A stretch of 64,000 nucleotides of DNA from Euglena gracilis (GCA_039621445.1 CP154954.1:23262954-23326953); one strand, 5' to 3'; counted from the first letter of the stretch, positions 1,449 through 34,523 are shown. Program-made: numbers and translations. The notes: generated by a model not told the origin, from the letters alone.

Positions 1449-1817
1449 TGTACGTCCCACCCCGGCTTTTCTACTTATGCTTTCCTCCCGAAAAGCCCTT
1501 GGTTGGAGTAACAATAAAATTTGCTTCCCTTTTCCCCTTTTGAATGCAAAGCACACAAGCAGAAGAATTTGTGGGACCGCAGTCCCTTATATGAAAGTGA
1601 CTTTTGCTCTTTCGAGCTTTGTAAAAGAAAGAAATAAAACTTGTATTCAAATGGGACTTCGCCCTCAGAATTCTAAGCTTTCGCTAGCTCTGAGATTCTC
1701 TCTTTGTCTTATGGTTTAACCATGCCACTGTGTACAGCCCGGCCGTAGCCAGCTTGTAGGCCGTAGCCCATTGTATCTGGTACACAGTGCCATGGCAGAA
1801 TGGCTGCCTGGTACACA
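1449..1817 (-). repeat. 3' LTR (369 bp)
   Basis: Direct repeat of 18602-19030 with TG...CA termini (plus strand TGTACG...GTACACA). Confidence 0.93.
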
Positions 1818-9780: not shown

Positions 9781-9827
9781 TTTGTACGACGTCATTGTAA
9801 AAATCATCTTTGGAATAATCCCATTCT

Positions 9828-11560
9828 CTAAAAAAAAGAGGGGATGGGGATTCGGATCGCGTGACCCGGCGGGTGCCCGGCTTTCTGCCGCGTTGTCGTT
9901 TTTCCCCGTACGGGGGCTACCGGCGTCCGCCGCCAAATCCGCGAGACCCGAAAACTGTCAAGTAGGTTGTCAGCGGCGTCTGCGCGCCTTGCATATTCGT
10001 CGGCTTCGCGACTTCCGTGGAACGTGGCATCACCCTCGTCAGGGTTACCAGGGTAATGCCAGGGTGCACGTGAAAGTGGGTCAGCAACTTTTTGAGTATG
10101 ACCTGGTGTGTCAACTACCACCAGGTTGAATTGACTCAAAAATTCGTGCCATCGGCATCTTCGGCCAACTGAGGACATGGCTTTGTTTAAGTCTTCGGTG
10201 TACCAGTGTTGGAGAGACTCGTGGTCTGTCAACACTAGTATTTGTACGAGTGAACTGGCGACCCAACTTCGGAATTTTTGTAGGATAAGGACAATGACAT
10301 ACGTCTCCTTTTCTCGTATGCTCCGTTTGACTTGTCCTTTTCCATCTTCACCCTGTAGCTTTCTGCTGAAGAATGCTACAGGGCGCAGTTCATTGGACGA
10401 GTTATTTTGACTCAACACGCCGCCGACAGCATAGTCGCTGCTGTCGACCTCCAGTACGTATGGTTTGTACGGGTCGGCAATGTCAAGTACAACGTTGTCC
10501 AACATCAGTTGTTTAATTGTCGTTAGCGATTCTCGCATTGTATCATCCCATTGTATCTTTGTATTGTCAGGAGCGCGATTTTTGAGTTGTCGCGTCAGTG
10601 GTACCGCAATTTTCGCGAAATCCTTCATGTAAATCGCGTAATACTGCGCTAAACCCAAAAATCCTTTAAAATGGGAGATTGTCTTGATGTTTTCAGGTGT
10701 CCACTTCTTTATAGCTCCGAGTTTGCTTGGAGATGCTCTCCTTTGTACGTTATTAAGAATGTGTCCACAAAATTTTATCGTTTCGCGAAACAAATGCATT
10801 TTTGCACCCTTGACGAAAAGCAAATGTTTTTGGAACGTTGTCAGAACGGAACGTATATCGCGGTAGTGAATATCAAGGATATCACTACCCGAATTTGTAA
10901 GTGGAGGAGGTGTGCCAATCAGCACGTCATCAATGTATACCATTGCAAACGGTAAGTCTCGTAAAATCCATTGTATCATTCTTTGGAACATGGCTGGGCC
11001 ATTCTTAACACCCATTGGTAACACCGTCCATTGGTAAACTCCGCGGGAGGTTACGAATGCGGTGTATGGTTGTGAGTCAGGGTGTAGGTGCATCTGGTGA
11101 AAACCATCCTCTAAGTCGAAAATCGACCAGAGGCGGTTTTCCGCTTGTTTTGTAATCAGGTCTTCGATAAGTGGTAACGGAAATGGATCGTCTTTTGTCT
11201 GTGAGTTCAAGTATCGGTAATCCAGCACAAGTCTCCACTTCTTCTCTCCAGAAGCATCGGGAGGCTTGGGTACAACAAAAGCTTGTGAGGTCCATTCGCT
11301 TTTGGATGGTATGATCCATTTTCGTTCAATCAGTTTTTCGATCATTGTATTGAGAGCTTGTTCTCTTTCGCCTGAACAGCGAAAGAATTTTCGGTGCATG
11401 GGCTGTGCACCTTCTTTGAGTTCGATCTTACAGACACCAAAAGGTCCGCGAATTGCAGGATCTATGTCATGGGCATAGATAGGATGTTCTAAAACATCAC
11501 TGAATTCGCGATTGATCTTTGTACATGGTTCTTGTGATTTGGGATGTTGACCACCGCTTT
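9828..11560 (-). CDS. Ty3/gypsy reverse transcriptase and RNase H
   Basis: KWRLVLDYRYLN, FDLEDGFHQ, LPMGVKNGP, VYIDDVLI, FLGLAQYY, EVDSSDYAVGGVL, LTDHESL. Confidence 0.96.
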
Positions 11561-11639
11561 CTATCACTGCGGATAGTTGGTATTTCTGGTCATTCTGACC
11601 TTTATCCTGTAGGAATTTGTCAGTGTGGTCAACAGTTCC

Positions 11640-12050
11640 GAATGCATCAAAGAAACAAACACGAAAATGATTTATTTCAATGGTGGTAACATGACACCGC
11701 AAAAATCTTCGAACAAAGGGGTGTCATTCGGTAAATCCCATCACTGAAAAGTGACATACGTCAATTGTTGGAACCATTCCGCTTCGGGATTTATAGGAAT
11801 CAGTAGCACACCGCGTGCTTGATCCCGAAGGATCTTGTCAACGACAAGAGGGATAAGTTTCAGAGGTGGATGTAGCCACAGGACCACATCACCCCAAAAA
11901 CTTATCAAACGCATTTGTATGGCTTGACCAGTAATTGGGTAAACGAGAATGTGCTTTGGACGAAAATGCGTCAATCTCCAATTGTAGGTCCATCGACTTC
12001 GCGATTTGTGCGATTTTGGAAAACCAAGTTTCCAAAATGCGGTATTGTCC
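11640..12050 (-). pseudogene. Dam-like (phage/DIRS-type) N6-adenine DNA methyltransferase domain within pol
   Basis: Joining frames across a T-run at 11896-11900 gives QYRILETWF...LEIDAFSSKAHSRLPNYWSSHTNAFDKFWGDVVLWLHPPLKLIPLVVDKILRDQARGVLLIPINPEAEWFQQL. Confidence 0.8.
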
Positions 12051-12815
12051 AAAATTGAACGCATTCCAGATGCGGTTCGCGAAAACTGTCGTGGTTTCAG
12101 TCCTGTGGAGGGCTGAAACACAGTTTACCGAGCCACATCGGTAATACGTTATATCCGAAGACACTTTATCAGGCATTATACCAGGTGTATCAGGTGTATT
12201 GTGTAGAGGACAATTGTCGTTGGCATTCTGCCACTTGTATGCAGGGACATTGGAGGGGTTGGTATTCTGCCATTCGGGGTCAGAAAGATTGGCTTTCTGC
12301 CATTGGAGGTCCTGTTGTGCGATTCTCGCGATTCCAAACAGGGACGCGATTCCGCGTTTGTTCAATTGTCGATGTACTTCAACACACAACGGGTAGCAAC
12401 CCGGTGTGTTGTGTTCTCGTTCAGCGGTCAGGGTAAACTCGGTACCGGTCCCGGTGCCAAGTGTACTCTGGTTGTTGTGTAAAGCGATTAGTTTGGAAGG
12501 TTCAACAATACGTCCACAGTCGAAATCAGGTTGTGCGGAAATTCTCCGGCAATGTGCGCATTGGTAGGAAGTGTCGGTCTGGTAGTGCATGTCAGTCTTG
12601 TGTAGTGTGTGCATGGGGGTGTTGGAAGTTGTAGCTGCTGGGGGGTGTACAGGGGTGTCCGAAATCGACACACCTGATGGAGAACGTAGAAGGTGTGCAG
12701 ATGGGCGGCTACTCGACACCGAAATTTCTTCAGGCCTTTGGGGTTTCGCCTTGGAACCCAGTGAAACGTGGGGGGTTAAGCTACTCGCTTTCCCTACCGC
12801 ATGGGAAACGTGCGG

Positions 12816-13430
12816 TTAAAGTGCAGTGGGCAGGAGGGCAGCTTTCTCTTTACCCCTAGGGTAGGAAACGGTGTTTTCGGTTGTAGAAAACGTTGTGGCA
12901 AGGCGGGGTGACATCTGGGAAGATGTCTTGGGGGAGAAATTCGGTGGTGTGGGTTGTGTGCGTGAAGTAGTGCGCAAACCGAGGGAGGGGCAATCCACAA
13001 TAAGGCGGTTCTGACGCAAGAACGAAAAACTAAAAATTACGTCAGAGCCGCGAATACCCGATTCGTAACTCCAGGTACCCAGAAAATTTTGTGTGTGTGG
13101 GGGCTGTGAGTGGTTCTTGGGGATGATGGGGAGGAGTATGTCCAAAAAGCATCCCAAGTCACCACCACACATGGGGCTGTTGTCAGCAGTCATAATTTTA
13201 GTGGGGTACTTGGCTTTCACCAAGAGGGAGTTGGGAATTAATCCCGTTCGGAAAAGAAGGGGGATTCGACACCCTGTGTCGACCAAAATTTTGCATTTGG
13301 CAGAAAAATTTTGTGTTCGGATTTCCGCTTGGACCAAAAGTTCCATGGGGGGTACGCAAAGTGCAGGATCCGGTGTAAAATTGTTGTGTCTCCAACTATT
13401 CCAGGATCCCGTTCCTACTTTGCTCAGCAT
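12816..13430 (-). CDS. Retropepsin aspartic protease
   Basis: KILVDTGC active-site motif and later GSDVIFSFSFL, between gag and RT. Confidence 0.85.
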   Translation of the reverse strand: MLSKVGTGSWNSWRHNNFTPDPALCVPPMELLVQAEIRTQNFSAKCKILVDTGCRIPLLFRTGLIPNSLLVKAKYPTKIMTADNSPMCGGDLGCFLDILLPIIPKNHSQPPHTQNFLGTWSYESGIRGSDVIFSFSFLRQNRLIVDCPSLGLRTTSRTQPTPPNFSPKTSSQMSPRLATTFSTTENTVSYPRGKEKAALLPTAL

Positions 13431-13582
13431 TCCAGGCAGAAATTTGGAGTGGGGAGTGGGGTCCCGAAAATTTTCCGGGTACCGACCAAAAAGGCAGATG
13501 GGCAGGGAAAGTAAGGTTGATCAGGTCCTACTTCCGTCTGTTCATCAGCCCAGAGGTCCGTGCCCACAGACCTCGGGCTCCC

Positions 13583-15916
13583 CTACTCCAAGTCCGATTC
13601 AGCACTTCGGCTGTTTATCGTTTTCTTGTGTGAGTAGATAGCGCGCAATGCGCGGACCGCATTGCGGTCATCCTCCAACGAGGATTCGGAGTTATCATCC
13701 CCCTCCCTGCCCGAAGCCGGGGTTCCCTCCTCTAAAGAGGAGATTTTGAACCCGACCTTGTGTTTGTTGTTGTGTTTTGTATCATTGTAGTGACGTTGGT
13801 TCGGGCGGGGAGAGCAAGAACGATAACATTTGGACGAATGGTGGTTATGTGATCCACAAAGGGAACACTTTTGTCGGTTTTGTGATTTTTGTCGGTTTTG
13901 TGATGGGCTTTCACCCCTTGGAGGTCTTGGTGAACGGAATCCCGTTCGACCACGGTTCTTGTTGTAATCCGGTTTCCCGGATGACGATCGCGAAGAAGAT
14001 GATCCACTTCGCGAACGTGATCGCGATGAGTCGCGATTTGTATCACGCTTGTAAGGGGGTCGGGGTGATCGACCACGAGGTGCGCGATCGCGTCCGCGGT
14101 CGCGGAACGGTGATCGGGACCTTTGGCGATAACCCGATGATTGTGATTGTCCAGATTTGTGTAAAAACCCAGAGGAGCGTGAGCTCCGCGAGGATTGTGA
14201 ACCCCTTGGACTTTGATACCGCTTTCGCGTATCAGGGTGGGGGCAGTCACGGGACGTATGCCCCGCTTTGTTGCACAAAAAGCAAGTTTTGTCAGAAGAT
14301 TGGTCAGATGAGCGCGGATAGCGCGTTTTTGTATCTCCTCTTGGGGAATTTGTATGTTTACCGTATCCCCGTGGGGATTTTGGAGATTTTGGAGAAGAAG
14401 TATTTTGTAGGGCACTTACCGTACCGCTAGGGAGACCAGCGGTAGGGTGGTGTGTGTAAGCCGATTGTATCTGTCCCAAAAGTTGTGAGAGTTTCATTTG
14501 TTTGGAAACATAGTTCCATCGTTGTTCAAGTGTGAGTTTGTTGTCCGCGAGTTCCTCGCGGTGGATGTCCTTGATAATTGTAGGAATGAAATGGAGGAGA
14601 ACCGCATCGAATTGTTCTTTCATTTGGTTCTCTCCCAGTTCATCAACCTCAGAAGCCAATCCCAACCATTTGGAATACCAAAGGTCGATGGACTTCCATT
14701 TTCGGTCACTGGGCGCGAATTGCCGCCATTTTTTCTCCAGCGTAATTCGCGAAATGAGGCTTGAACAGGTTGACGCATATTGGTCAACCAGTCAATCAAA
14801 AGTTATCCGATTCCGGATCACAAGTTGTCGGGCGCGTTCTTTTTCTTCCTTGGGGAGGCAATCAATGAATTCCATCTTGATTACCTCAGGGTTCCCATCC
14901 TGGGTTGGACCCTTCAAGTCCCAGTAGTATGTCCAGTCGCGCCAAAATTGTTTCCAAGTTGTGGGATCTCCGTCCCATTGTGGCTTTACCTTGTTGGCAA
15001 TTGTAATTGTACCTTTGAAATCGCGCTGTGGACCGCGATTTCCATCGTAATTGTTGGGATAAGGTTGTTGTTGTGGCATGCGCGAATGCGCATCCATGAA
15101 TGTACTCATGGTACCGTAGGTACCATGGGTATTTGGTACATCGCAATTCCGCGAATTGTATGGTTGTGGTTCGCGATTCCGCGATTCGGATTGTAAAGGG
15201 TCGCGATTCCGCGATTCGGGGTGTGGCAACATACCAGGGGGGTAGGAATCCCGTTGTTCACCCGCAAATCGGGGAACCGCGGTAAATTCCGTGTTTCGCA
15301 TTCGCGATCCATGGGCAATACCCGGGGTAGGGGTATGGCTCATACCGCGAATCAGTCCCGATTCGCGAATTTCCTGTTGTAAAACCGGAGGATTCGCGGT
15401 TTTTGTGGTAAAAACCGGTTCCTCATCCGAAGATTCACCCTTAGGGAAGGGAATCTTGAGTTGTGGAATAAACGGGCGATTGTAATCGCGATTGTAGGCA
15501 TGTTCATGATCATGTGCATCCGTGGATGCTTGTAGGGCATGCGCATCCGAAGATGCTTGTAGGGGTGCGCATACTGCGCTTTTGGAAGGATTGGCATCCA
15601 ACGAATCGCGAATTTGATGCACAAAGTCGCGAGTTGGATGTCGGGCATCCGAAGATGCTTCGGTTGATGCGCGAAAAGCGCGTTGTGAGCTGGAAGTTGC
15701 ATTTTGACCACCGAAAACACGGTTTTCAGGGGCAAAGTGCGGGGGGTTGCGGGATTTTGCATGAATCTCGTCCAAAGTCAATACAAAGTCTTGGATGAAT
15801 GAACCCCACTTGGAAAAGGTCCGAAATTCCTTCAACATCTCCATGCAAAAGATTAATTCGTTTGTGGTATAAGTGTAACTCATCCAAAAGTGGTAGTTTG
15901 TCAACAATGGAGGCAA
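13583..15916 (-). pseudogene. Gag core with CCHC zinc knuckles and an RS-rich region; frameshifted
   Basis: PQWDGDPTTWKQFWRDW capsid-like motif, CFLCNKAGHTSRDC and CSLCGSHNHHSSKC. Confidence 0.88.
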
Positions 15917-18601: not shown

Positions 18602-19030
18602 TGTACGTCCCACCCCGGCTTTTCTACTTAAGGTTTTCCCCTGAAAAGCCCGTGGGGGGAGTAACAATAAAATTTGCTTCCCTTTTCCCCTTTTGAATGC
18701 AAAGCACACAAGTAGAAGAATTGGTGGGACCGCAGTCCCTTATGATTGTGACTTTTGCTCTTTCGAGCTTTGTAAAAGAAAGAAAGAAAACTTCTATTCA
18801 AATGGGACTTCGCCCTCAGAATTCTAAAACAGAATTGCAAAGCACCAAACCCTGTAACCTTGAATTAGGAACCAGAGGCTTTCGTTAAGCTTTCGCTATC
18901 TCTGAGATTCTCTCTTTGTCTTATGGTTTTAACCATGCCACTGTGTACGGCCCGGCCGTAGCCAGGTTGTAGGCCGTAGCCCCTTGTATCTGGTACACAG
19001 TGCCATGGCAGAATGGCTGCCTGGTACACA
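18602..19030 (-). repeat. 5' LTR (429 bp; ~60 bp longer than the 3' LTR)
   Basis: Direct repeat of 1449-1817 with an extra block at about 18828-18888. Confidence 0.93.
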
Positions 19031-19706: not shown

Positions 19707-22700
19707 TCATGTGCTGTATGGGTGGTGAGTGTCCATGCCACCTCCTTCGTTGAGGTCGTCAGGGCATTGGCCCCACACGAGCTGTTTCGCCAGTTCTCTG
19801 GCAAGGGCCATGCTGAGGCCCTGCCAGCACTTTGCCTCCGCTGCTCGCCTCTCCCATGCGTCATGTTGTCCCGCAAGCAAGTGAACACAGTTTCCAACAA
19901 AGGCAAGCGCTGCCTCCCCCATTCCTCCGTAGCAATCGAGGACAAAGGGGATGAACGTCCACCCTCTGCGCTTACAACCGTCTCCATACTTTTTGATTTT
20001 GTCTTCCTCCTGGCTCTCATGCCATTTCCCAAGGTCTTCCAATCCTGGCCGTACGCGGGAAGGTGCAAGGGGGTGGCGAACGGTCACATCGATTGCCGCC
20101 GGACCGTTTGCATCATATCGCATCACAAATACGTCGCCCGGGCGGGAACCATCAGGGGCACTCTCCTCTCTTCTGGCCGGGAAACCTGCCTTTTGGGCCA
20201 GCCCAAGGATGTAGGACTGCACCGCCCCGTGTCGCCGAACAATGTTGTTCCGGTGGCAACAAACGAGGTGATGGCCTCTTGCGTCCAAGGGGTTGTGGCA
20301 CCGAGGGCACCCGGGACAGGCATCTGAAGGCGAAACAACCGGAGCACCCAGGGACCATTGCATCAGGGCCTGGAATTCCCTTGTTGGTATGAGCGTCCTT
20401 GTGGCGGCTGACGGCGTAACGGAGGCCCAAGCCATAGCATGTGGCTTCATCTGACATGCCATTTTCAGTTTATCGCTACCCGTGAGTGAGTTGTACAGAG
20501 CTTGCTGTCGGGCCTTTGCACACTGTTGTCCCCAGAATTTCTGTGCCGTCATTTCTTGAGGCAGCATCTCCGGACTTTTTGGGTCCTCAACAAAGGCCTT
20601 TGCAATCGGTGGGAGCTCACATAGACCCTTGATGGCCTCCACCTGGGCGGTAAATTCCGAAGGTAGGGGGTTCATCCCACAGATGGGTGGCAAGTCGAGG
20701 ACGCGGTCGCCGCGAACAAGAAAGTCAAGTGTGGCGGCCCACCTGGCGATCGGGCGCTCCGTGGTAGGGTCCCGGGTGCCCAACCCACCCAACCGGACAG
20801 GCAAGGTGGCCTGGCGCCACTGGTCCTCTTCCAGCGGCCGCCCGACAATGATGCTGGCGGTATTCCGTAGGGTTTTGCTTAGCAGCGTGCACTGCATGGT
20901 TGCAAGGCCAATTGGAGTAGTCCTCAACAGGTCGTTAACCTTGCACGCGTCCAGACACAGCCTTAGAATGGTGAACTGGATGTGCGCAGAAGGCACCTTC
21001 TGCAAGGCTGAACACGCCTTCATAGCTTCTTCGCACCGCCCAAACCACACACGTTCGGCAAATGTCCCGTCCTCCGGATGGCAAATTGGAACCCCGAGGG
21101 ACTTGATTCCGGAACCAGGAATGTATGGAGTTACGGGGATGCGTTGCAATACACTTGTCCCCTCCAGGAAGAGAAAACGGTCGGGTTGGAAGGCTGGCCC
21201 CCAAAGGGTGCATTTGTTGATATTCAGGTCAACACCAATGGGTGGTCCCTTTTCAAGGACCAAATGTACAACCTCCTCCAGCTGGCGTGTAGTCCCCATG
21301 ATGTGGGCATCGTCCAGGTACCAGGCCTGCCATCCGCAAACGCCATGGATTTCCTCCACCAGACTCTGAATTGCCATGGCAAAGGCAGCCGGTCCACAAG
21401 GATCGCCTTGCTGAACCCCCGACTGGCTTCGGAGGGATGTGTCGCTCAAGAAGAGGCTCGAGTGTTCTGCATAACAGGTCTCCAGCCACGTCACCATTTC
21501 TGGACATCGTTCTCGTGCTGCTTCGAGAAGGTTATCCCTCCGGATCCGGTTGAATGCGTTCCTGAAGTCCAATTGCAAGACTCCCCAGTCACGAGAGCCT
21601 CCATGATGGAGGCTGGTCACGAGGTGTTGGAGGCCCATGCCGATCAGGCCACAGGCGTCAGGACAACCCACCCCAAAACTGCCCGGGCATCCCACCTTGG
21701 GTAAACTTTCGCACGGCAGGTTGGCGCATCAGCACCTTGCCCACCAGTCGGCGCAAGCATTCTCCAGAAGCAATGGGCCGAGTCCCTTCTTGTGCGGGAT
21801 CCTGCCCATTGGGTGTGAGGTTCCCAGCGTCATCCACTGTCGTGGCCGGTTTGACCTTTCGCAGCGCCGTGAGGCGTGCCGATGTGAGGATTTCAGCCAC
21901 ACCAGCGGGCCATCCCGTGTTGATGCAGCAGAAGACGAAGGTCATGAGGCCCTCAAGCAGTGTCTCGGCCTGTCCCCCAGCTTCCCTGCTAAGCATGTCC
22001 TTAATGTGGTCCGGCTTTAGGCCCGATGGCCCTGCTGCCGATTCTTTTCCGAAACTGAACGCGGACCATGGAAAGCCTGTCCCTCCTCTCGTTCTCGTCT
22101 CCAGGTGGCGGAAACATAACCCGTTTATCCGTGGGGCCCCGGCCAGGTGGTTCCTCAGCCGGGTGAAGATCGTTCAACCGTTGGCGCACAACGGGGTGTT
22201 TGTCATCTTGCACGCCGTCCGAAGTCAGGACCTGGCATGCCTTGCCAACGGCACCCTTGCTCACCAAACGTTCAAGGCGGCGTACGAATGCTTCTTCTTG
22301 CACTTCTTGCTCACGTCGGGCTTGGCCCCTGGTGCGAACAGGTTGACCCATTTGGGGTAAGCGGGCAGAGTCCTTCCAACTGTCTGCCACCGTTCGTTTT
22401 AGATAAGCTTCCGCTCTGCCGCGGATGGCCCTTCCCAACCGGGCCCAATGGCCGCGTCCACCCTTTCCCAAAGGTGCCAACACAGCCTTGGGGAAAGCCC
22501 ACAGGCCATGTAATGTTTCCCAGGTGGGCCTCTCGTTGAACGCCCGGAGAAGGCAGGAGTACACGTCACAGACCGCGGGAAGGGCTCCCTTTGGTATGGT
22601 GGAAACAGTGCCCCTTGGATCCGAGGATATTTCCATCCACGACGGGGAGAGATCCGGGCACGGGGATTGAAGGGCAGTGCCAGTTTTCATGCCGGGTAGA

Positions 22701-23100
22701 TATTGAACCCCCATTTCAACGTCGTCCACCCCATGCAACGCACTGGGTCCTCTTGTGGGCCCTGGGCTATTTGTAGCGGGGAGCGTGGCCTCCAGCGGTG
22801 GCCGGCTGATGAGCCGTTGCAACAGGTCTTGAAGCTCCCTGGCATCTTGTGAGGAAGGGGATACTTGCGGCGGGGGCTGCAACGGAGGCATGGTTGTCGC
22901 CATGAGGAAGCCAATTGTACGCTCTGTGTTTTGTTCAAAGTCAAACAGCATTGGCACCAAGGTGTTGTTCGCTTCAGGGAAGGTTGGTGGACCCGGGCCT
23001 GGGTTTGATTCGACATCCCCTGATGTCAGCAGGCTGTCCCCTCTGCCGGTCCGAGGGTGAGCGGAGGCATGGAGCTTGCGGGGAAGGCCGTTCCGCTTCC
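19707..23100 (-). pseudogene. CRE polyprotein: 2A motif, N-terminal region, RT, CCHC finger, restriction-like endonuclease; frameshifts near 22050 and 21680
   Basis: GTRPIASGECLRRLVGK, LDFRNAFN, GVQQGDP, WYLDD, CPRC...HHLVCC, RRHGAV, RPGD, AIDVTV, E.DKIKKY, FIPFVLDCYG. Confidence 0.92.
22994..23040 (-). other. 2A/StopGo ribosome-skipping motif LLTSGDVESNPG|P
   Basis: Exact match to the D(V/I)ExNPGP consensus, in frame in ORF 22001-23701. Confidence 0.88.
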
Positions 23101-23129
23101 CAAAAGGTCCAAGGATTTGACAAATGCCC

Positions 23130-24008
23130 GTTCTGCCGGCTCCACCACGTCCATCCGAGAGGATAATTGAACTCAGCGACCTCAAAAACCCTGTGCCTGG
23201 CCGCTTTGCGTGGCTTGGAGAATCCGCCAATGCCCATTCTCCGCAGGGGTCGAGGAGCTTGAGGCTTCGCTCTCTACCAGGACGGTCTTGACGAATGCCG
23301 GCTCTGGCGGCTCCACCACGTCGGTGTGAGCGGATATTCGGACTCGGCGACCTCAAAAACCCCCCTGAGGGGACTCTCAGTGGGCTGTTCCGGGTGATTT
23401 TTGCGAAGAAATTGTAATGGCTGGTGCCCGGCGGAAATGGTTCCCGTACTCCCCGGTACGGGAAAATTACGCATGGCCGTTTCCGGCCTCCCGCCGCATT
23501 TCGGCGGGACGAGGACCGCTTTTTCGGGTCCGCCACCCTCGAAAACCTTCCTTGTGGGCATCTGAGCGGGCTCCGCCGGGTCGTCATTATGAAGCAACTG
23601 TGATGGCCGATGCCGGAGGGCACTGGTTCCCGTGTGCCACCAGGACGGTCTTGACGAATGCGGGCTCTGGCGGCTCCACCACACCACGTCGATTTGAGCA
23701 AATATTCGTACTCGGCGACCTCAAAAACCCCCGTGAGGGGCCTCTCAGTGGGGTCTGCCGGGTCATTTTGGCGAAGAACTTGTAATGGCTGGCGCCGTGC
23801 GGCTGTGGTTCATGTGCTCCACGGGACGAGAAAATTCAGCATGGCCGTTTCTGGCCTCCCGCCGCATTTCGGCGGGACGAGGACCGCTTTTTCGGGTCCG
23901 CCGCCCTCGAAAACCCCCCTTGTGGACATGTGAGCGGGCTCCACCGGGTCTTCTGAATGAAGCAACTGTGATGGCCGATACCGGAGGGCAGTAGTTCCCG
24001 TGTACCAC
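23130..24008. repeat. Two full ~365-bp tandem repeats plus a partial copy in the 5' region of the CRE element
   Basis: accaggacggtcttgacgaatgc at ~23276 and ~23639; gcgacctcaaaaaccc at ~23176, ~23347 and ~23715. Confidence 0.88.
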
Positions 24009-24589
24009 GGACTCCAACAAAGTACTCAACAAGGGTCGAAACCTCCAAAGAGCATTTTGAGTGCAACAGCAATTTTTGCAGTCTTTTCGCAAGTGGATAT
24101 GGCGGACTTATGATCATAATGGCGGGCCCTTCGCCCAACACCCTTCCGACCGGGGGGGAATGACATGGCACTAATCCGGGAATCGTCGTGGGTGTCTTTG
24201 GGGCAAAAAGTCCACATGTTATGTTTTGTTCGCTTCTCATGCCTTCGGTGATGATGATGATGTCGATGGATGGTCCGGGGCTGACCTCCCGGGCTGCTGC
24301 TCCAGGGCTGATCTCCTGGGCTCGTTGGGGGTTGGGGGGCTCACCCCTTTGGTTGGCATGCTGGGGGTTGCAAGGCTTGTTCTCTTGCCCCCGGTGCCAT
24401 CGAACGCTGCGGGGCTGTGTCTCCCGCTGCTCTGGAGCTGTGGGGCTTGGCATCCCACAGGAATCAAGCTGGTTTGTCAAGTAGAGAACTGGTCACGATC
24501 AACAGTTGCAAAGGAGTGGAAGTAGTCGATGACTCCAAACTGTCCTTTTGCACCAGAAATCTGCGCATCCTGCCAATTAGGAGTAACCT

Positions 24590-24690
24590 CGATAGCGGTT
24601 TAACTCGCTGGATTAAATCCGGTCTGACACCCGAACCTCGCTGGATTAAAACGGATTTAATCCAGACCGAGTTAAATGTCAAATCGAATT
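24590..24690. repeat. Small hairpin (MITE-like) element
   Basis: ttaactcgctggattaaatccg pairs with cggatttaatccagaccgagttaa. Confidence 0.65.
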
Positions 24691-25283
24691 AACTGTCCTA
24701 CGAATTAAAGCTACCCCCTGTACGTGATGTCCTGCGCCTGGCGACCAACTCTTACTCTGGAACTGCCAAACAACGCAAGTCTCAAGAACTGAATGAAAAC
24801 CTGGCCATCTCGCTAGCCCGTGCTGTAGCACGGCAGATGCAGTTGGCCGAAAGGGCCACGGACCGCATGATTCTGAACTCGTAAGGACACCATGCCCCCG
24901 ACAACACCCGCACCACCACCCGGTTCCCTTTCAAAGTCCCGGGGTGCCCGGCACATGCACACCAAACACTATACAGTCCTCCCGCCACCTTCATCTCCCT
25001 TCGCTTGGGCTTTGCCCTTGCCCTTGCCTCACCTCACTTCCGCTTTGATCTGTATATAGCCTTGCTCCTGAACACTCAAATCCAGTAGGCTGTGCCACTG
25101 GTCGGTGGACTCGGCTCGCCCCACCACCGTTGAGGGCCCAACCCCCTCTAGATAAGGCCAACCAGAACCAAAGTGAAACAGGTCAAGTGACAGGCAGGTG
25201 CAACGGCTCGCGGTGACCCGTCCCGACGGCCAAGAACAGCACGCCGACACGGGCGACGTGTGGGCACGACACGCGCAAGACAT

Positions 25284-25416
25284 GTGCGAGCCGTGCCCAC
25301 CGTGCCGAGCCGTGCCGGGCCGTGCCGAGCCGTGCCGAGCCGTGCCGAGCCGTGCCAAGCCGAGCCGAGCTGTGCCGAGCCGTGCTGAGCCGTGCAGAGC
25401 TGTGCCGAGCCGTGCA
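25284..25416. repeat. 10-bp minisatellite (ccgtgccgag)n, with an inverted copy at ~29281-29307
   Basis: Directly visible repeat; gcacggctcggcacggctcgcac at ~29284 is its reverse complement. Confidence 0.85.
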
Positions 25417-26160
25417 TGTGCGCACCCGAGAGAGGATGGGACATTGGTGGGCCCCATTCAAATCCAATCCTCCGGACCGAGACCACTGTTCACAAAGGAG
25501 ATGGCAACTCCACATCCACCATCAATTAGGGCCCATGCCCCTCGGGGCAAGGCAAGCGAGAATCGAAGTGAAGCAAAACAGTGACAGGCGGGAGCAACAA
25601 AGAACAGCACGCCGGCACCGACGCGCGAGACACGTGTGCGCCATGCCGAGCCGTGCCCACCGCTGAAAGGCGTCCCCCCCCCCCCGCCATCAAGGGGAGG
25701 CGTGCCCGAGGCGTCCAAACGAAGAGATCAGTCCTGCAGCCCCTGCCGGCTTGGGGGCGTTTCTCGAGAAAAGGCCTTCGATGAGAAAATGGTGGACGAC
25801 CCCCCCCAAGGGGGCGGACGGACGGACGGACGGACGGACGGCTGGTGAAAAAAGCGAAGGTCCGGACGGACGGCTGACCTTGTGGGCTTGGTCCAGACGG
25901 CTGAAGAAAATGCACTTGGTCCAGCTAGCCGGCTAGCCGGCCGGGTCTTTGGAAGCGCAGGCGTCTCAGTGCACGCGACTCTGGGCGGATATATACCAAT
26001 TTTTTGCCATGGCCGGTGTGGATGGGGGTGTCGTCCCCGTGACCCCCCCCCCGTGACCCCCCCCGTGACCCCCCCGTGACCCGGATTTGAACACCCCCCG
26101 ATTTTGGGGTCCGCAAACGCACGTGCTTCAATCACAACTGCTTTCAGTATTTTTTTTCAA

Positions 26161-26730
26161 ATGTCGCGGAAGCCGGAAACATTGAAGAGGAGGCCATATC
26201 CCCCCCGTGACCCCCCCCGTGACCCCCCCGTGACCCCCCCGTGACCCGGCCCACCCCCGATGCGCTCCAAGGTTGAGATTGCCAAGTTTTTGCTGACAGA
26301 TTCAAAGCTGGAACGGATGCGGGCAATTGCCCGTGGTGCTCAGGACAGCATTGGACTCCCTGCAGGCGCACTCACGGCAATGCTGGAGCGTGCACACCAG
26401 GAAAAACCGAAGGGCAGGGACTGGATGTCTCGTACCGTCCATTGGAGTCAACGACACATTGCAGAATGTGGCCCCGTCACCACGGTGGAGCTGAATAAGC
26501 ATCTGAATATCATCTGGAAGAGATGGGCAAGGGCAGAAGCCTCAGCGCAACAAAGAACGTCGAAGTTGGAGAAAGCTCGACAAGAGGGTGGGGTATGTCA
26601 AATCCCCATGTGCTTTTTTCCAATGTTGTCTGACAGGTTACAAATGATCAATCTCCAGTTGTTGCAAATGTGCAGAATGATTCAGACGTTATGGTCGTCC
26701 CAAATGAAACAGAGGAATTACTTGTTTTAA
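26161..26730 (+). CDS. Unknown helical protein, possibly the accessory gene of the adjacent Harbinger-like element; intron-containing
   Basis: ATG 26161 (MSRKPETLKRR), ORF SKVEIAKFLL...WKRWARAE, and a GT-AG intron at about 26588-26636. Confidence 0.4.
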
Positions 26731-27048
26731 TTTTTTTCGGTGCCAATCACATGTTAATTGCACAGGACGGTTATGAGTTTCGGGGGGGGGGGGATGCATT
26801 TCGTATTTTTTTGCACAATTTTTTCCCATTATTCCAAAAAACGCTTTTTCTGCGTTTGAGGGTCTGGCATTTTTTGGTACAATTGTTCCATTTTTTATGG
26901 AGCGGCACTTGTTCGATTTTTTGTGGTTCACCCATTTTTTGACCTTTTTCTTGATGTTTTTTTTTTTTGGGGTTCCCCCCCCATTTGGTTCGAAAAGCCT
27001 GTCGGTGAGCCCCCAAAAATTGGAAATTGTACCAAATTATCAGTAGAA

Positions 27049-28251
27049 CTCTCCAGACGTTGGGCAGTTGCATGGTGGAGGTTGACCCCTGCCACTTCCG
27101 CCAACCTGGCAACAGTGTTCCTCACTTCCCCCATCAAGGCTGGATTGAGGTTGAGGTATTGAGGTTGAGGTTGAGGTTGAGGTTGAGGTTTTCCAACCTC
27201 CATCTTTCCTCAATGTCACCTCAATGCCAAAATCCAAAAGGAAAACGACTCAACAAAGAGAATTGAAAAAGAGTGTTACAAAGAGAGGCAAATTACCTGG
27301 ATTTTTTCAAAAATTGAGCAATTGGTCACTTATTTCAAGTTTTTTTTCGGCACCCCACTATTTTTTCTTGTTTCCACCCACATACGTTGTAAATTGACAT
27401 AAAAGCTGTCAAACTTGCCTTTGAGGAAGGTTTTAGAAGAGGAGATGTTCGAATCCATGCTTTTTGTGAGTTCATTTTTTTGAATTTTGGACATTGAGGT
27501 GACATTGAGGTTGAGGTTGAGGTTGAGGTCGTTGACATTGAGGTTGAACTTTTTTTGAAATCCTCAACCTCAATCCCGCCCTGCCCCCATACCATCGGCA
27601 GCTGGAGTCAGGGTTTTTCCGAAGGCTGTTTGAGAAACAGAGAAAGACCCTGAGTCGGACACTGTTCCAGTCCACACCCATTCCCATAGATTCACTGCAG
27701 TGGGTTGATCTTTTGGGGGGCATATCCTGAATCTATGCATGAGACAATGAGTATCTGCGTCAATCGAAGTACAAGGGGAGTGTCGCAAAGTTCCAATGCG
27801 CCTCAACCCACCTCGGGTTTATAGCGTACTGGGATGGGCCCCGGAACTCTCTGTTTTTGTTTTCTGAAAAAAAATTGAAAAACAGAGAGGGCACCACCCC
27901 GGTGCTGCCTCTGACACGGAGCTGGCGCGGCGTTGCAGACCTTACCTGTTCCCAACTGACACATTTCTGGCCGATAAGGCCTACGAAAGCGTGCCCAACA
28001 TGCTCCCCCCCCTCAAAGAGCGACGCCTGTTGTCCTTTGAGGAGAGGGAGTATAACCGAGCGCACCAATTTTACCGCGATCGGGTTGAGCACGTTTTCGC
28101 TTGGATGAAAACCTTTGGTGTGGCCGCTCAAAAGCATCGCTCACCGGACTTGTTTGTACTTAAAAGCGCGATGCTGACCCTTGCAAACATCCGCAACATT
28201 ATTGTGGCGGTGCGGGTACCGTATGTCCCGTACCGGCCGGTGTGGCCGTGA
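27049..28251 (+). CDS. PIF/Harbinger-like DDE transposase core split by four non-canonical introns
   Basis: Exons ~27049-27132, 27589-27605, 27658-27681, 27743-27842 and 27896-28251 join in frame to ...NSVPHFPHTIGSWDTVPVHTHDNEYLRQSKYKGSVAKFQCASTHLGFIAYWDGPHPGAASD...FLADKAY...EREYNRAHQFYRDRVEHVFAWMK, with an intact D-D-E triad. Confidence 0.82.
27135..27583. mobile_element. MITE with 22-bp TIRs and 7-bp TSD (CCCCCAT), forming the first reconstructed intron of the transposase
   Basis: Left end CAAGGCTGGATTGAGGTTGAGG; reverse complement of right end CAGGGCGGGATTGAGGTTGAGG; CCCCCAT at 27128-27134 and 27584-27590. Confidence 0.85.
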
Positions 28252-28329
28252 TTTCTTCCTTTTTTCGTCAAAAAAAGCCCCCCCCACCCCGCAGCTGAAA
28301 AAGTGCAAAATAAAGGGCATATGTCTGAA

Positions 28330-28405
28330 CATCGTCAGTGTAGTTCAGAGGTCGAAGCACAGGTCGACGTCTCTGTAGACACGGGTTCGAATCCCGGTCG
28401 TTGGG
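28330..28405 (+). ncRNA. Degenerate tRNA-like (Pol III A/B box) sequence
   Basis: A-box-like TAGTTCAGAGG at 28341 and T-arm CGGG-TTCGAAT-CCCG at ~28382; acceptor stem is poor. Confidence 0.45.
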
Positions 28406-28475
28406 GGCGACTTCCTATTTTCTCTGAGGCGGCAAAAATAATTTTCATAAAAGTACACGGAGAGGAATGATATCA

Positions 28476-28547
28476 CCCCCCGTGGCATAGCGGTCGTGTG
28501 GTTAGCGTGTGACCGGTAGGTCGCGGGTTCGAATCCCGCCGGGGGGC
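28476..28547 (+). ncRNA. tRNA-like cloverleaf with non-canonical anticodon loop (pseudo-tRNA or SINE head)
   Basis: Acceptor stem CCCCCCG/CGGGGGG, A box TGGCATAGCGG, T arm GCGGG-TTCGAAT-CCCGC, 72 nt long; the anticodon loop lacks U33. Confidence 0.65.
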
Positions 28548-29264
28548 AACTTCGTGTTTTTCCTGATTTGACGCGACGAGTAGAGGGAAGCCGTGACTGC
28601 TTTTCGGAAAGGAAGGAAAAATTTTTTTTGGTCCGGCCGGCTGGCAAGACAGACATTGGTCCGGCTTGATGGACGGCTAGCGAAAAAATGCTTCGTCCGG
28701 ACGGACGGCTGGACGTCCAGCATTGGTCCGGCTGAAGAGGTCCGGACGGCTCGGACGGCTAGCCGGCCAGCCGCCCCCCAAAGGAGGCTAGGCGCGCCGC
28801 TCGGGGGGGGGGGGGGGGGCCGGGCCCCCCCACTCCCCCCGCCCCTACGCGGCCGCGGCGCCCGCTCGCCCCCCCCCCCCCCCTCCCCCAACCCCGTGAC
28901 CCCCCCCCCGTGACCCCCCCCGTGACCCGAACCACCCCCCTTGAGAAGAGCTTTCCATTGAGGGGCAACGGAAGCAAATACCCTCAAAAACAGAGTTTTA
29001 GATAGATTTCAGGCTTTTTGAAAGATTTTTTTATCCACATTGGCATTGCACACTGCCTTGCCATCTTCCTTGAAAAAATGTTCCCAACCCCGGGACATTT
29101 CTTCTTCCTATAACGAAAAAGAAGCGAATAACTGGGGGGGGGGTCACAAGCGATTAACCGTTATTCAATTAACCATGGTTAATTGCCCCCCCCCCCACAA
29201 ACGAACGATTAATTGGGGGGGGTTACAAGCGATTAACCGTTTTTTGATTAACCATCCAACCTTG

Positions 29265-31712
29265 GATGAAACCACATGCCGGAGCACGGCTCGGCACGGC
29301 TCGCACCGGGGTCGTCCAACTTTGGAGGCTAGGCACAGCGGGGGGGGGGGGGCGAGCGGCCGCGCGGGCGGCCGCGCGGGGGGGGGGGGGGGGGGGGGGG
29401 CCGAGGGCGGCCCCGGGGGGGGCGCGCATCCTAAAATCGGTAATTTTCGGGTCCAAAAAGTGGTCATTTTTTGCCATTTTTGGGCCATTTTTGACCAAAA
29501 AGGTGCTTTTTTGGTCGCGTGCACAGCGCGCGGCCCCCAAATTTGCCATTTTATGTCCGAAAATGGTCATTTTTGGTCATTTTTGGCCTCAAAAAAGTCG
29601 CGATTTTTCATTAAAATTTTTTTATTGGCTATGCTAGGCACAGGGAACACCACATTTTTGGTGGCAAAATTAGGAATCACCGAGCCTAAATTTTTGGGAA
29701 AAATTTCCACAAATTAGGAATCCCCACCAAATTAGGAATCACCAAGCCCAAATTTGAAAAATTTACGCCTCAAAATTAGGAATCTGCCTGAGAACTTTAT
29801 CAAATTAGGCATCACCGGCCAAATACCCAACAAAATTTCGCCGAAAAGGGTCCTTGTTCAGGTCACGGGGGTCACGGGGAGAACACCCCCAAGGGTTTTC
29901 GACAGATGGCCATAGAATTCAGCCACAATACACACCGTGCTTATTTTTCAGTGATTGTTTATTCCAGAATTTCACATATTAATTAGAGAAATCCCACCCT
30001 TCAAGCACCATACAGCATGGGGGATGCATGGTGTGGGCACAACACCATGACCCCCCCCCCCTGTACCTGAACATCGGTGGACCCGGGACCCCCCCCCCAC
30101 AAACTCGTTTGGTCCAATTGAGTTCGCTACTTGACAAGGGGGTCCCGCGGGACCCCCCCCCCCCCTGTGCATGGGCCCACTTCGGGGGTGCTACCCCCGT
30201 GACCCCCCCCCGTGACCCGCCCGTGACCCGAGAATCGAGCCTTCGATTTTCATACAATGCATCAACCTTCATCACTTCAGCCTTTCTTTTCATTCATCAT
30301 TTCAGCCTGCTTTTTTATGTAGGTGGCGGTTTTGGTCGCTTTTCATCAATTTTCTTGTTCAAACCATCAAAAATTTGCCTTGACATGGTCTAAAAATGGA
30401 AAGAAATGCCAAGATTTGAGGTGAAAAAAATTTCGACCCAAACAATGGCGCTTCTTTGCCGTATGAATTTGACCGGCTCATTGCGGGAAATTGGTGATGC
30501 ACTTTTTGGTGGTCGCTAGCGACCAGTCGCTAGCGACCAAGTCTACTGACCATTGGTGGTCGGGCCGACCACCAATTTTAAGTTTACCCTCCCTCAAAAA
30601 GTTTTTAAGCCACCCCTCGAAAAAAAATCATTCAAATTTGCAGCAGCCCCCCCCCCCCGGAGGAGGCCATAGGGAGCGCAATTCGGCCATCCTTGCCTTC
30701 CACACATTGCAAACTAACCCCGAAAATTAAACCCCGAATGGAGGTGGGGTGGACTTAAAATTGGTGGTCGGAGCGACCAGTCGCTCCGACCACCAATGGT
30801 CACTAGTGACTAGTCGCTAGCGACCCTAGCGACTAGTCGCTAGCGACCACCAAAAAGTCCATCACCAATTTCTCGCTCGGGGCCAATTTGACGCAAAACA
30901 TTGGCAAAAGGGAGATTGCGCAAGTAGGAAAGAATTTCATCGCAAAAAGGGGGAGAAACATGGATTTTTTTGTGGAAGAAACCCCCCCCAAAAAACAGAA
31001 ATAATTGTCCTCACCCCACCTTCCATTTGGACAACCAAACCCCTTTTTGGCACCCAACGTCCAATGCACCTCCACACCCAAAAATGGCCAAAAATCTTGT
31101 CCCCTAAAAAAGTGCCAGAAATTGCTGCATTTCTGCAACGAAAACAGAATTTTTTGGCTAATTTTTTCCCCCTTCAAAATAGCCATTTGGGCCATTTTTT
31201 CAAAAATGGCCCAAAATGCATCCCAAAAAATGTAACGGTCAATAAAATCCTGAAAAATTCCTTTTCAAAAAAATGAAAAAATGACCAATTTTGGACATAA
31301 AAATCACCCAAAAATGACCACTTTTAAACCAAAAGGCATTTTTCTTGTTCAAAAATAGCCCAAAAATGGCCAAAAATGATTACTTTTTGGGCCCGAAAAT
31401 CACCGATGCGTGCCGCCCTTCTCGTGATGGGATGCAACAACATGGATGCTGCCTCCCGACCACCTCCAAAGTGGCATACTTCCCCCGTGACCCCCCCCAT
31501 GACCCCCCCCCCTTGACCCCCCCGTGACCCGCACCACCCCCTTCAATTGCAGCTGCCCCATTGGCATCGTGTCTCATCGTGATCTGAGGGTGAGACAATG
31601 GGAGCACCAAGGAATCATTCAACCAAGGCCTAGAATTAAAATTTTTGGGATGAGAGCTCTTGTGGCGGCTGACGGTGTCACTGATGCCCATGCCATGGCA
31701 TGTGGTTTCATC
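29265..31712. mobile_element. Foldback/TIR element with nested inverted repeats
   Basis: gatgaaaccacatgcc (~29265) pairs with ggcatgtggtttcatc (31697-31712); an inner ~140-bp inverted repeat pairs 29421-29570 with 31281-31414. Confidence 0.7.
30475..30884. mobile_element. Mutator-like MITE (~60-bp TIR, 9-bp TSD)
   Basis: gaaattggtgatgcactttttggtggtcgctagcgac pairs with gtcgctagcgaccaccaaaaagtccatcaccaatttc; flanks are AATTTGACC and AATTTGACG. Confidence 0.8.
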
Positions 31713-34523
31713 TGGCTTGCCAGATGAAACAGGGTTGGGCAATTAACCGTCATTTTTCAGGTCAAGCGATTAACCATGGTTAATTGGGGGTCGGGCGTCG
31801 ATAACCAATTTTCGATTAACCGTGCCTTTCCCTCGATTAATTTCGATTAACCGCCACTGGATCGTTTTTTCCCCAAAAAAAGCAAAAGTCATTTGCCTTT
31901 CTGGCTTACTTCCTCACTCCACAATCTCGGCCAAGGACAAAATTTGGCGTCCAGAAAATGTGGTATCCCCCACAAAGTGGCCACCCTCCAGGCAGCTTGG
32001 GACCCCGAAATGGCCACTCTGGGGGAGGGGACACTTTGGGGGGGGGGGTCAATTTTCGGGCTCAAGCGCCTTCGACGCCAAAAGAAAGCGGCCACTTTGG
32101 GCGGGGTATACAAAATTTGGCAAAACATTTTGAGGGGGGGGGTGAGGGTTTGTGAAAACTTTAATCGGCATAATTTTTTCCTGAGAGGGAGGGCTTAAAA
32201 AAAAAACTTATGGGGGTGAGGACTGTGTTGGGCTCAGATCGACTTAGTCGGCTCGATCGCCCAAAGTCGACTCGACAACCTGTGCCCAAACGGAGCGAGT
32301 CGATTCAACTACCCCTTACTCTTGAGTACAAGTGGTGGGTGAGGGGGGTTTGGCGGGGGTTTGGCGGAAATGTGACGGACATTTTTCCTACTTTAAGCAC
32401 TGTAACCCCCCCCCCAAATGCAACCCCCCTCCAGTTTTATATTTGGGCAGAAATTTCAAGACCCCCACGGGGGTTTTATATTTTTTATATTCGGTTGGAA
32501 AAATCAACTTCTTGGCGGGATCCAATAGTCACTTTTTCACAAATAAGCCCACCCTTGGGGGGTCCAAAAATTTTATTTTCCGGGTGAAGGAGCAATTTTC
32601 ACACGTTTTTGGTAAAAACTGCTCCCAAATCTGCCAAAAATCACAATTTCAGGAGAGATTTTGTCGAATTTTTTTTCTTCCGGCGCGAAGCGAAGGAGGG
32701 GGGGTTATATTCGGGCGGGATTTCAAGGTCCTCGGGGGGGGGGGCATATTTGGGGGGAGGTTGTATTTGGAGGGGGTTTTGCATTTGGGGGGGGGGTTTC
32801 TCGGTTTTCTGACCATATGTTGCTGTCCCCCCCACCAAAAAAAAACTCTTGGATCCACCGCCTTTGGAGGAGTTTAGCTCTTTCATGTCCCTGACAGGTG
32901 CGCAATGGTGGGCAGGTCCTGGGGCCATGGCGGTTTTTAAGTCTTGTGCACCAGGTGGAACAGGGGGGGGGGAGGCTCCCCCCCAGTCTACCGTTTGCCA
33001 CTGGGGGGGGGGGCATGGTATTCAGATCAAACATCTGCGGAGAAACCAGACACTTGTGAAACAGAAACTTGTCTGGCAAAGGCAATTATTTTCAGAAAAT
33101 TATCAACTGTTTTGAGAAAAATGGCAGTTGTTTGGAGAGAATTGGCAGTTAATTAGAGATAATTGACCGGTTAGAGTTGAGAAACGTGGCAATTATTTTG
33201 GTTATGTCAAATTCTTGCAAAAGTTTGGTGAAACATTTGAAAAACAGCGTACTCCCGCTGTGCCCTCACCCCCCAGATTGCCCCCCCCCCCCAAATTGAC
33301 CGTTTGGGTTTTGGGAGGTGCCAGCTTTGTTCTCAAAAATTCACCGTGCAAAGGGGGGTTGGTACGCCGTGGCGGGGGGGTCCAAAGGGGGGGGGGAGGG
33401 GGGTTAATGGCGTGGGGGGGGGGGCGGCGCCCGGGGGGGGGGGTGTACCATGGCTTCCAACAAAATTTTCGTTCAATAAATTTGCGAAAATCCCCGGAGG
33501 CGTGGTGAGGGGTACGGCTAGGGGGGGGGAGCCCCAATTGGGCCGTGGGGGGGTGCAAGGCCGCCCAAGGGGCGGCCAAGTTGGGGGGGGGGGTGAGGGT
33601 ATTCAGTTTTTCGCGCAAAATCCCTGGGGGGGGGTATAATTGGGGGAGATATTATTCAGTGGCTTTTCTTCAGCAGTGGTTCAATCGTTTCTTTAAAAAA
33701 AAGTGTTCGCCCATTTAAAAAAAAAACTGGCAGCATCTGCAAAAAAAATTGGAATACTGTGCAAAGAAATTTGCCACTGTTTGCAAACAAAATGACAGGA
33801 AGTGCAAAAAGACAGTGATTTTTTCCAGGCTTGTGCATGCGCATGTGTGTGTCAGGGGGTCCGTAAGAAAATGGGGGGGAATCCTGCTGTCCCAGCACAT
33901 CTCAGGGTTGACTTTTTTTTTAAAAAAACAAGTTTTTTTTTCAAAAAAAAACGCCAAAAAAAAAACATGTTTTTTTCAAAAATCAAAATTTGACTTTTTC
34001 CCTTGCGAAATGGCCATTTTTTGAGGAAAAAAAAAGTTCTAAAGTCATTTTTTTTGGTCATCAAAAAGTGACGTTTATTTTTGATTATTATTATTATTAT
34101 TCCAGACCCTTCATCCTTAAACGATGTGGTTGGTAAGGCGTCACACATGTCAAAACAAGCACCCTTGACGGAATACGAAGGTGCAGAGATAAAAAAAGAC
34201 CTTTTTTTTCTTCACAAAAAAAACATTTCAAAAAAATTCTACAAACCCTCCATGACATTTTTTTATTCTTTTATTTTTTTTAAAAAAAGCCATCAACCTT
34301 GGCACATCTGTCAAGCAATGGGGACAAGTCGATTGGGCGGTCGGGTCGACTAGTCGGCCCGACTACCATGCCCCCCCCTCCCCCGAGCTGCCCCCCCCCC
34401 CCGAGCTACTCCCATAGGGGGGACGGGAATAGCTCACTGTCATAGCACTTTTTACAAACAGCAGTACTTTTTTTGACAACGTATTTGCAACTTTTTGTTA
34501 CCTACAGACATTCTTGGCACAAA

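Follow-up and report, generated by a model that had tools for sequence, protein, structure and literature searches.

Three probable nonconventional introns and a nested foldback element in a truncated DDE_Tnp_4 transposase copy of Euglena gracilis

Nonconventional introns form the majority class in Euglena, accounting for 71.8% of the introns of E. agilis according to PMC12501133. The machinery that removes them and their origin are unknown, and an origin from MITEs (miniature transposable elements with inverted repeats) is suspected. Knock-in assays in E. gracilis reported in the same source define a splicing code, 5′-N3CDG…CH′GN5-6/R (the slash marking the intron border), with base pairing beside the motif. 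In those assays splicing was lost on any single change tested in CAG or CTG and with donor spacers that differed from 3, while acceptor spacers of 4 or 7 were poor and a spacer of 8 was non-functional; synthetic introns of 50 nt were spliced, and the code was found in 61.2% of annotated nonconventional introns (PMC12501133). A consensus for E. gracilis, given in PMC11170887, has two parts, CCAGG (+3 to +7) and CCTG (−9 to −6). The MITE-origin hypothesis and repeats resembling target-site duplications at nonconventional introns are described in PMC11282704 and PMC12621601. Similar introns occur in some diplonemids, so that such anatomy is not by itself diagnostic of a euglenid. Here we describe a locus in a 64,000-nt stretch of the E. 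gracilis genome (GCA_039621445.1, CP154954.1:23262954-23326953; the window, with positions counted from its first letter), in which 27024-28251 on the plus strand code for a DDE_Tnp_4 transposase (IS5/PIF-Harbinger, PF13359), of which the C-terminal two thirds are present, in a frame split by four inserts. We read this locus, with moderate confidence, as a truncated transposase copy containing three probable nonconventional introns (inserts 2-4) and a nested high-copy foldback element (insert 1). Its parts are as follows.

27024-27132, plus strand: coding piece 1 (…KLYQIISRTLQTLGSCMVEVDPCHFRQPGNSVPHFP); positions 86-122 of a profile hidden Markov model (HMM) of 7 homologues, E 1.3e-6; also tblastn and spliced alignment
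27133-27588, plus strand: insert 1, 456 nt; a 449-bp foldback MITE-like element at 27135-27583 plus one copy of a 7-bp repeat
27589-27605, plus strand: coding piece 2 (HTIGSW), 17 nt; spliced alignment and border scan, homologues reading …LGSW/DT…
27606-27657, plus strand: insert 2, 52 nt, AGT-CAG…CTG-AGTCG/G; 12-bp terminal helix at +4/−6
27658-27681, plus strand: coding piece 3 (DTVPVHTH), 24 nt; spliced alignment and border scan
27682-27742, plus strand: insert 3, 61 nt, TCC-CAT…ATG-CATGA/G; 10-bp exact terminal complement at +4/−6, no slide
27743-27842, plus strand: coding piece 4 (DNEYLRQSKYKGSVAKFQCASTHLGFIAYWDGP); HMM positions 142-171, E 1.2e-7; also tblastn and spliced alignment
27843-27895, plus strand: insert 4, 53 nt; 12-bp exact helix CTCTCTGTTTTT/AAAAACAGAGAG at +5/−7, three equivalent starts at 27841-27843
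27896-28251, plus strand: coding piece 5 and stop codon; Pfam DDE_Tnp_4, E 1.6e-9; HMM positions 167-285, E 1.5e-40

The locus has in common with DDE_Tnp_4 transposases a domain above the Pfam cut-off, an aligned D-D-E triad and an apparently multi-copy state. The profile check proposed with the original prediction, which had called this a Harbinger-type transposase gene, came out positive for the last piece: 27868-28248 matches Pfam DDE_Tnp_4 at 38 bits against a cut-off of 24.8, over profile positions 48-137 of 158, and the two upstream pieces (36 and 44 aa) on their own gave no Pfam match. A HMMER search with piece 5 (27895-28248) against 1.84 billion representative proteins returned 81 matches at E ≤0.001; P0001 led with 2.7e-23 (50% identity), 20 matches reached ≤1e-10, and ≤1e-30 was not reached. 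Several of these homologues are uninterrupted proteins of 280-312 aa with the whole DDE_Tnp_4 domain. They derive from metagenome or run assemblies, on contigs of ~1-2 kb, and two metagenome scans for their DNA (alignment A1; P0083) confirmed nothing. No near-identical protein, as a possible spliced form, was found in two word-index searches with piece 5 (near and longer lengths), and a search of the ESM Atlas again returned DDE_Tnp_4 clusters and nothing else.

As had been predicted, removal of the four intervals leaves a single frame, with 201 codons and no stop. Its product reaches 251.2 bits with a profile built from 13 uninterrupted homologues and is colinear with them. The D-D-E residues fall on D144 and D211, both invariant in alignment A1, and on its near-invariant E258. 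The HTIGSW and DTVPVHTH pieces fall on the family motif …LGSWDTFP…, and the codon for the first catalytic Asp (27658-27660) lies directly 3′ of insert 2. The rest of the domain is in piece 5, where LADKAY holds the second Asp and RVEHVF the Glu. Upstream, the frame of piece 1 opens at 27009 after a stop codon. When the locus is read without removal, inserts 1-3 introduce in-frame stops and insert 4 a frameshift.

The borders of the inserts were assessed by homology. The same coding pieces were recovered by three methods: tblastn with homologues, the HMM of 7 full-length homologues run against all six-frame open reading frames (ORFs) of the window, and splice-site-agnostic spliced alignment with four homologues. 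In consensus, the pieces end at 27131, run from 27585 or 27591 to 27605, begin at 27658, end at 27841 and run from 27895 to 28248. Spliced alignment broke at 27131 (27137 with P0083) to 27585-27591, at 27605 (27602) to 27658 (27655) and at 27841 to 27895, and the borders floated for insert 3 only (27690-27699 to 27755-27764). Next, a profile score was computed for all 1,116 in-frame, stop-free border pairs lying no more than 15 nt to either side of those proposed. The originally proposed borders ranked first among the distinct products for insert 1 (of 192), insert 2 (of 200, with the runner-up 3.3 bits below) and insert 4 (of 172). For insert 3 they ranked third of 109, at 251.2 versus 251.5 bits, which is effectively a tie; its borders are not pinned by homology, as 27694-27760, 27687-27741 and a GC-AG pair at 27697-27751 all lie within ~2 bits.

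As drawn, the inserts have the ends AT..CC, AG..CG, TC..GA and GG..CC in order. None has GT-AG ends in any equivalent slid position, which agrees with the original prediction, and the proposed borders outscore each of the 47 in-frame GT/GC-AG alternatives that lie up to 30 nt to either side. The best such alternative falls short by 17 bits for insert 1, 10 for insert 2 and 8.2 for insert 4, and by only 2.1 for insert 3. Given the agreement of the three methods, the ranking of the borders, the lower scores of the GT/GC-AG pairs and the stops or frameshift on read-through, the interruptions are confirmed: the inserts are real, and without the four intervals the locus is a DDE_Tnp_4 transposase frame in colinear agreement with uninterrupted homologues. 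The borders of insert 2 can slide by 1 nt, those of insert 3 by 0 and those of insert 4 by 2 nt, and because these ranges are so small, inserts 2-4 carry no target-site duplication. The borders of insert 1 can slide by 7 nt (8 equivalent positions).

By their anatomy, inserts 2-4 are best read as Euglena-type nonconventional introns, insert 2 convincingly and inserts 3 and 4 less so. With the described introns they share non-GT-AG borders, short size and little or no slide, and inserts 2 and 3 also share a terminal helix lying 3 nt and 5 nt inside the borders. Insert 2 fits every element of the code (N3-CAG…CTG-N5/G, with a purine opening the next exon). The borders that homology favors are, to the base, the ones expected under the code from nothing but the helix, and they agree with the consensus CCTG (−9 to −6). 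The minimum-energy fold includes the 12-bp RNA helix of this insert, one pair of which is G·U (z −2.61; 3 of 200 shuffles as good). Insert 3 fits in its 3/5 spacers and next-exon purine and departs from the code in its CAT/ATG motif; at 61 nt, its removal gives a gap-free alignment with the homologues. Insert 4 does not fit, having CTC/GAG at N4/N6 spacers, and its helix is present in the predicted fold (z −1.74; 11 of 200 shuffles as good). These departures, together with the CAA/CTG at 3/4 of insert 1, are variants that are unvalidated or defective in the assays of PMC12501133. A further difference from the described introns is that the containing gene is a transposase and not a cellular gene, and that the putative introns are recognized here by their DNA anatomy.

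Paired ends, which could bring the borders together, had been predicted and are present in all four inserts, as helices of 12, 10 and 12 bp in inserts 2-4 and a 22-nt inverted repeat in insert 1. The predicted +4/−6 register of the short inserts holds for inserts 2 and 3; insert 4 pairs at +5/−7 and cannot reach +4/−6 by sliding without altering the product. Two other placements of insert 4, 27844-27896 (N3/N7) and 27848-27891 (inner CTG/CAG, N3/N6), were rejected at 246.7 and 242.1 bits, below the 251.2 bits of the borders first proposed. In all three short inserts the helix is asymmetrically inset (3/5, 3/5 and 4/6 nt). A candidate fifth intron upstream, based on inverted repeats at 26873-26884/27025-27036 and 26964-26972/27011-27019, was discarded, as the right arms lie within homologue-aligned sequence.

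Public sequencing runs were compared over 25000-31000: X1 and X2, contig sets labeled 'RNA?'; X20, a large contig set resembling genomic DNA; and X21, raw RNA reads under the same species label, in a 5% sample. Inserts 2-4 are present in independent DNA-like contigs. One X20 contig (record 21) spans 27765-27906 with insert 4 in place at a depth of 529, and contigs at 27682, with a total depth of 596 and at least 31 nt on each side, cover the junctions of insert 2, piece 3 and insert 3. Summed X20 depth is 617-1,413 over exons and short inserts, with 617 for inserts 2-4 versus 664-1,413 for the exons, and 26-33 for the lowest-depth contigs of the same stretch. The depth of inserts 2-4, ~20 times the lowest local value, suggests that the family multiplied with the inserts in place, and since they are no more abundant than the surrounding exons, they are not a separate repeat family; none has a further copy elsewhere in the 64-kb window. 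We infer that the transposase family comprises many near-identical copies, all carrying inserts 2-4, and the short inserts are probably spliceable and older than the amplification of the family. The X20 contigs differ from the window at a few places. All of those covering the A-run in the loop of insert 4 (place 27867) are 1 nt shorter, the majority at 28079 encode Ala, the family consensus (YRARVE), where the window has Asp, 27933 is synonymous, and 28132 changes K to Q in about a quarter of the depth.

Insert 1 differs from the short inserts in kind. It is an abundant foldback flanked by a duplication of 7 bp, and its donor motif is CAA in place of CAG. The best interpretation is a nested MITE-like transposon insertion that does no more than resemble a nonconventional intron. 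The direct repeat CCCCCAT, at 27128-27134 and 27584-27590, abuts both ends of the element, whose arms (27135-27156 and 27562-27583) form an inverted repeat of 22 nt that is 91% complementary and is followed by subterminal (TTGAGG)n repeats. The element folds back over its whole length (z −4.62; none of 100 shuffles as stable). It is small and non-coding, with terminal inverted repeats, a flanking duplication and, judged from depth, a high copy number, as is typical of MITEs. Its X20 depth of 21,889-33,299, against 617-1,413 on the adjoining exons and 26-36 at the lowest places, and near-identical pieces in X1 and X2 contigs point to a repeat family far more abundant than the transposase. As an intron it does not fit the code: in-frame removal of 456 nt needs N3/N4 spacers, and N3/N5 spacers remove 457 nt and shift the frame. 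The original prediction of four euglenid-type introns is partly supported, by every element of the code in insert 2 and by the 3/5 geometry in insert 3, with insert 4 off register and insert 1 best read as a foldback transposon. Insert 1 is comparable to transposon-derived introns (introners), as considered under the MITE-origin hypothesis in PMC11282704: it is a high-copy foldback with terminal inverted repeats that start CAA…/…CTG and a flanking direct repeat, it lies in frame within a coding sequence, and this arrangement is the one proposed as the source of such introns. It differs in that its duplication is 7 bp, when the 3+5 spacers of the code need 8, in its CAA donor, and in that its splicing is only hypothetical here.

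The favored reading implies the following course of events. The locus would be one copy of a multi-copy DDE_Tnp_4 (IS5/PIF-Harbinger-like) gene, without the N-terminal third. Euglena-type nonconventional introns are excised from pre-mRNA by a machinery that recognizes the terminal helix, and are released as circles. If the copy is transcribed, precise excision of insert 2 should rejoin TGG to GAC and so bring back the W-D of the catalytic motif. The same fate is plausible for inserts 3 and 4, with motifs or spacers that deviate from the tested code. Insert 1, a 449-bp high-copy foldback with CAA…CTG ends and a 7-bp duplication, would have arrived as a transposon insertion.

Several observations weigh against this reading. 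Only insert 2 of the four meets the tested code, and the knock-in results on CAG/CTG and the donor spacer, as reported in PMC12501133, argue against inserts 1, 3 and 4 as drawn. The 10-bp complement of insert 3 is absent from its minimum-energy fold (z +1.51; 190 of 200 shuffles are equally or more stable). The family N-terminus of ~85 residues (HMM positions 1-85) was undetected anywhere in the window. Spliced alignment of three N-termini to 26000-27065 performed like that of shuffled queries, with scores of 63, 64 and 59 where the shuffles averaged 63.0, 56.5 and 61.8; with 12 shuffles per query the maxima were 89, 63 and 76, so that one query exceeds its shuffles by 1 point. Summed contig depth is not copy number, and the absence of X20 joints lacking an insert applies to the 15 joints listed, with 35 more outside that list. 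The RNA runs offer no sign of expression of the exons, spliced or unspliced, in X1, X2 or the 5% sample of X21. In that sample, 34 of 12,895,792 reads fell on the 6-kb stretch, all of them partial, and the depth over the gene was 0 save for 0.1 in one bin. As a single raw run was sampled, at 5%, this null is weak evidence.

The motif alone is weak evidence. A code-perfect 46-nt hairpin at 9135-9090 (minus strand), in the integrase of a chromovirus-type retroelement elsewhere in the window, seemed to join two frames and was rejected as an intron, being ordinary coding sequence in which the hairpin encodes a conserved stretch. Ty3 Gag-Pol aligns there in one frame to residue 1266 and in the other from 1267, and the break is therefore a 1-nt frameshift in an A-run near 9155. 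Across the window, code-fitting hairpins joining long ORFs numbered 253 for N3/N5-6 versus 246-268 for eight decoy geometries, a count that does not discriminate, and hairpins opening with CAG, CTG or CGG were not enriched (12 of the 426 stems left after filtering). What speaks for inserts 2-4 is thus the combination of hairpin geometry, homology-defined interruptions and the lack of duplication, not the motif alone.

It is possible, if unlikely, that all four inserts are inactivating small palindromic or foldback DNA insertions in a dead copy that were never spliced, with the likeness to introns stemming from a shared MITE-like origin. Insert 1, clearly a member of a repeat family with a 7-bp duplication, conforms to such an account; inserts 2-4 lack a target duplication and have asymmetrically inset helices, unlike terminal-inverted-repeat elements. 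They are also not over-abundant relative to the exons (617 versus 664-1,413 in X20) and have no other copy in the window. Three of the four inserts miss the tested code, whereas insert 2 fits it in all elements. The lack of RNA cover over the exons and the N-terminal truncation are as expected of a dead copy, and removal of any insertion restores colinearity by definition. The window is, moreover, rich in short exact hairpins: with arms of at least 10 nt and spans of 30-80 nt there are 300 centre-distinct cases, where 30 shuffles gave 3.6 on average and 8 at most. The majority are in satellites or homopolymer runs; the several dozen outside them include 1726-1789 and 18939-19002, which have the same arms, and 24608-24665.

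A broader proposal built on the favored reading of inserts 2-4 as introns is, in our estimation, doubtful. It holds that a transposon family spread through a euglenid genome already bearing nonconventional introns, that its transposase is made only after nonconventional splicing, and that the in-frame foldback is a candidate MITE-to-intron step. Were this true, selfish elements would be clients as well as suspected sources of nonconventional introns, and a live high-copy foldback with CAR…CTG ends and a 7-bp duplication would be a concrete candidate for the long-postulated step. Among the papers listed for Euglena transposases and nonconventional introns, none deals, by title and abstract, with such introns inside transposase genes, and the one listed for Harbinger and transposable elements in Euglena concerns Merlin elements. 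With a code-perfect intron, two off-code hairpins and a high-copy foldback in one gene, the locus offers a compact natural test set; knowing which inserts are excised would show how far the code extends and have a bearing on the MITE hypothesis. At the level of anatomy, the finding is one more case of an intron type already known.

The original prediction went further still, holding that the transposon may still be expressed; in its full form, an autonomous, still expressed element whose active transposase needs nonconventional splicing of all four inserts, we judge this reading quite improbable. The joined frame is open over 201 codons with an intact D-D-E triad, the family is apparently multi-copy with inserts 2-4, and the majority of copies keep the consensus residue at 28079. 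The relatives are short proteins of ~280-312 aa, whose ~85 N-terminal residues this copy lacks, and the features of PIF-Harbinger elements were not found at the locus: no Harbinger-type terminal inverted repeats with a 3-bp target duplication were present in 25600-29100, and no Myb/SANT-like second gene of PIF/Harbinger type was detected. The ORF at 26245-26727, upstream, matches no Pfam family and by hhalign is unrelated to the transposases (probability 0.07). Insert 1 presents a further obstacle through its CAA donor and the N3/N4 spacing that an in-frame excision demands. Expression itself found no backing. A run search for 27024-28251 listed no matching run on record as RNA. X1 and X2 cover insert 1 only (27251-27500, 27165-27500 and 27453-27584), with a depth of 0 from 27613 to 28416, and the word shares of 0.06-0.34 of the 'RNA?' runs are due, at least in X1 and X2, to insert 1 alone. 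The exons are thus essentially uncovered, and the transposase copy looks truncated and silent in the RNA sampled.

That some inserts are conventional GT/GC-AG introns with slightly shifted borders is very improbable, since all 47 alternatives score lower, by 8-17 bits for inserts 1, 2 and 4, and the in-frame options for insert 3 (GC-AG at 27697-27751 and GT-AG at 27700-27751, 2.1 and 5.8 bits lower) are 2-3 residues longer than the homologues and leave the 10-bp terminal complement out of account.

The locus is flanked, at 25815-26083 and 28650-28940, by two direct copies, ~2.84 kb apart, of a very high-copy repeat of ~270 bp. The repeat is GGACGG-rich and then (CCCCGTGAC)n, and its X20 depth is 81,000-107,000. 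X20 joints that skip ~2.6 kb (25997-26024 to 28622-28626) had been considered as ends of a transposable element and are explained by these flanking repeats. A tRNA-Thr(TGT) gene lies at 28476-28547 (plus strand), 225 nt 3′ of the transposase stop. A 15-nt segment of its T-arm (CGGGTTCGAATCCCG) has a second copy at 28382-28396, 142 nt upstream of the copy in the tRNA, which suggests a tRNA-like relic, and X20 depth climbs to 14,478 across 28417-28617.

The window as a whole is repeat-rich, with ~50% G+C, retroelement genes, satellites and one tRNA, the only Rfam match. In 20 long ORFs scanned with Pfam, retroelement domains or nothing appeared, and no host gene was recognized. The chromovirus, identified from its Pfam domains, is laid out as follows.

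8369-14791, perhaps to ~17800, minus strand: chromovirus-type Ty3/gypsy retroelement
13586-14791, minus strand: zf-CCHC gag
9831-11723, minus strand: reverse transcriptase plus RNase H
8937-9713, minus strand: integrase core, with the 1-nt frameshift in the A-run near 9155
8372-9232, minus strand: SH3_Tf2-1 domain and chromodomain

Two more RVT_1 ORFs, probably from other retroelements, lie at 19710-21728 (minus strand, 1.5e-13) and 540-1586 (minus strand, 2.8e-8). Long G and C homopolymer runs form G-run/C-run hairpins at 28780-28900, at 29130-29200 and elsewhere. Arrays of a 19-bp palindromic satellite (ATGATGGCCATC…) occupy 56100-56950, 59100-59850 and 61800-62600, recurring with their flanks every ~2.7-2.96 kb. 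Identical hairpins recur at 55508/58471/61199 and at 57418/60227/63016, which points to a tandem unit of ~3 kb.

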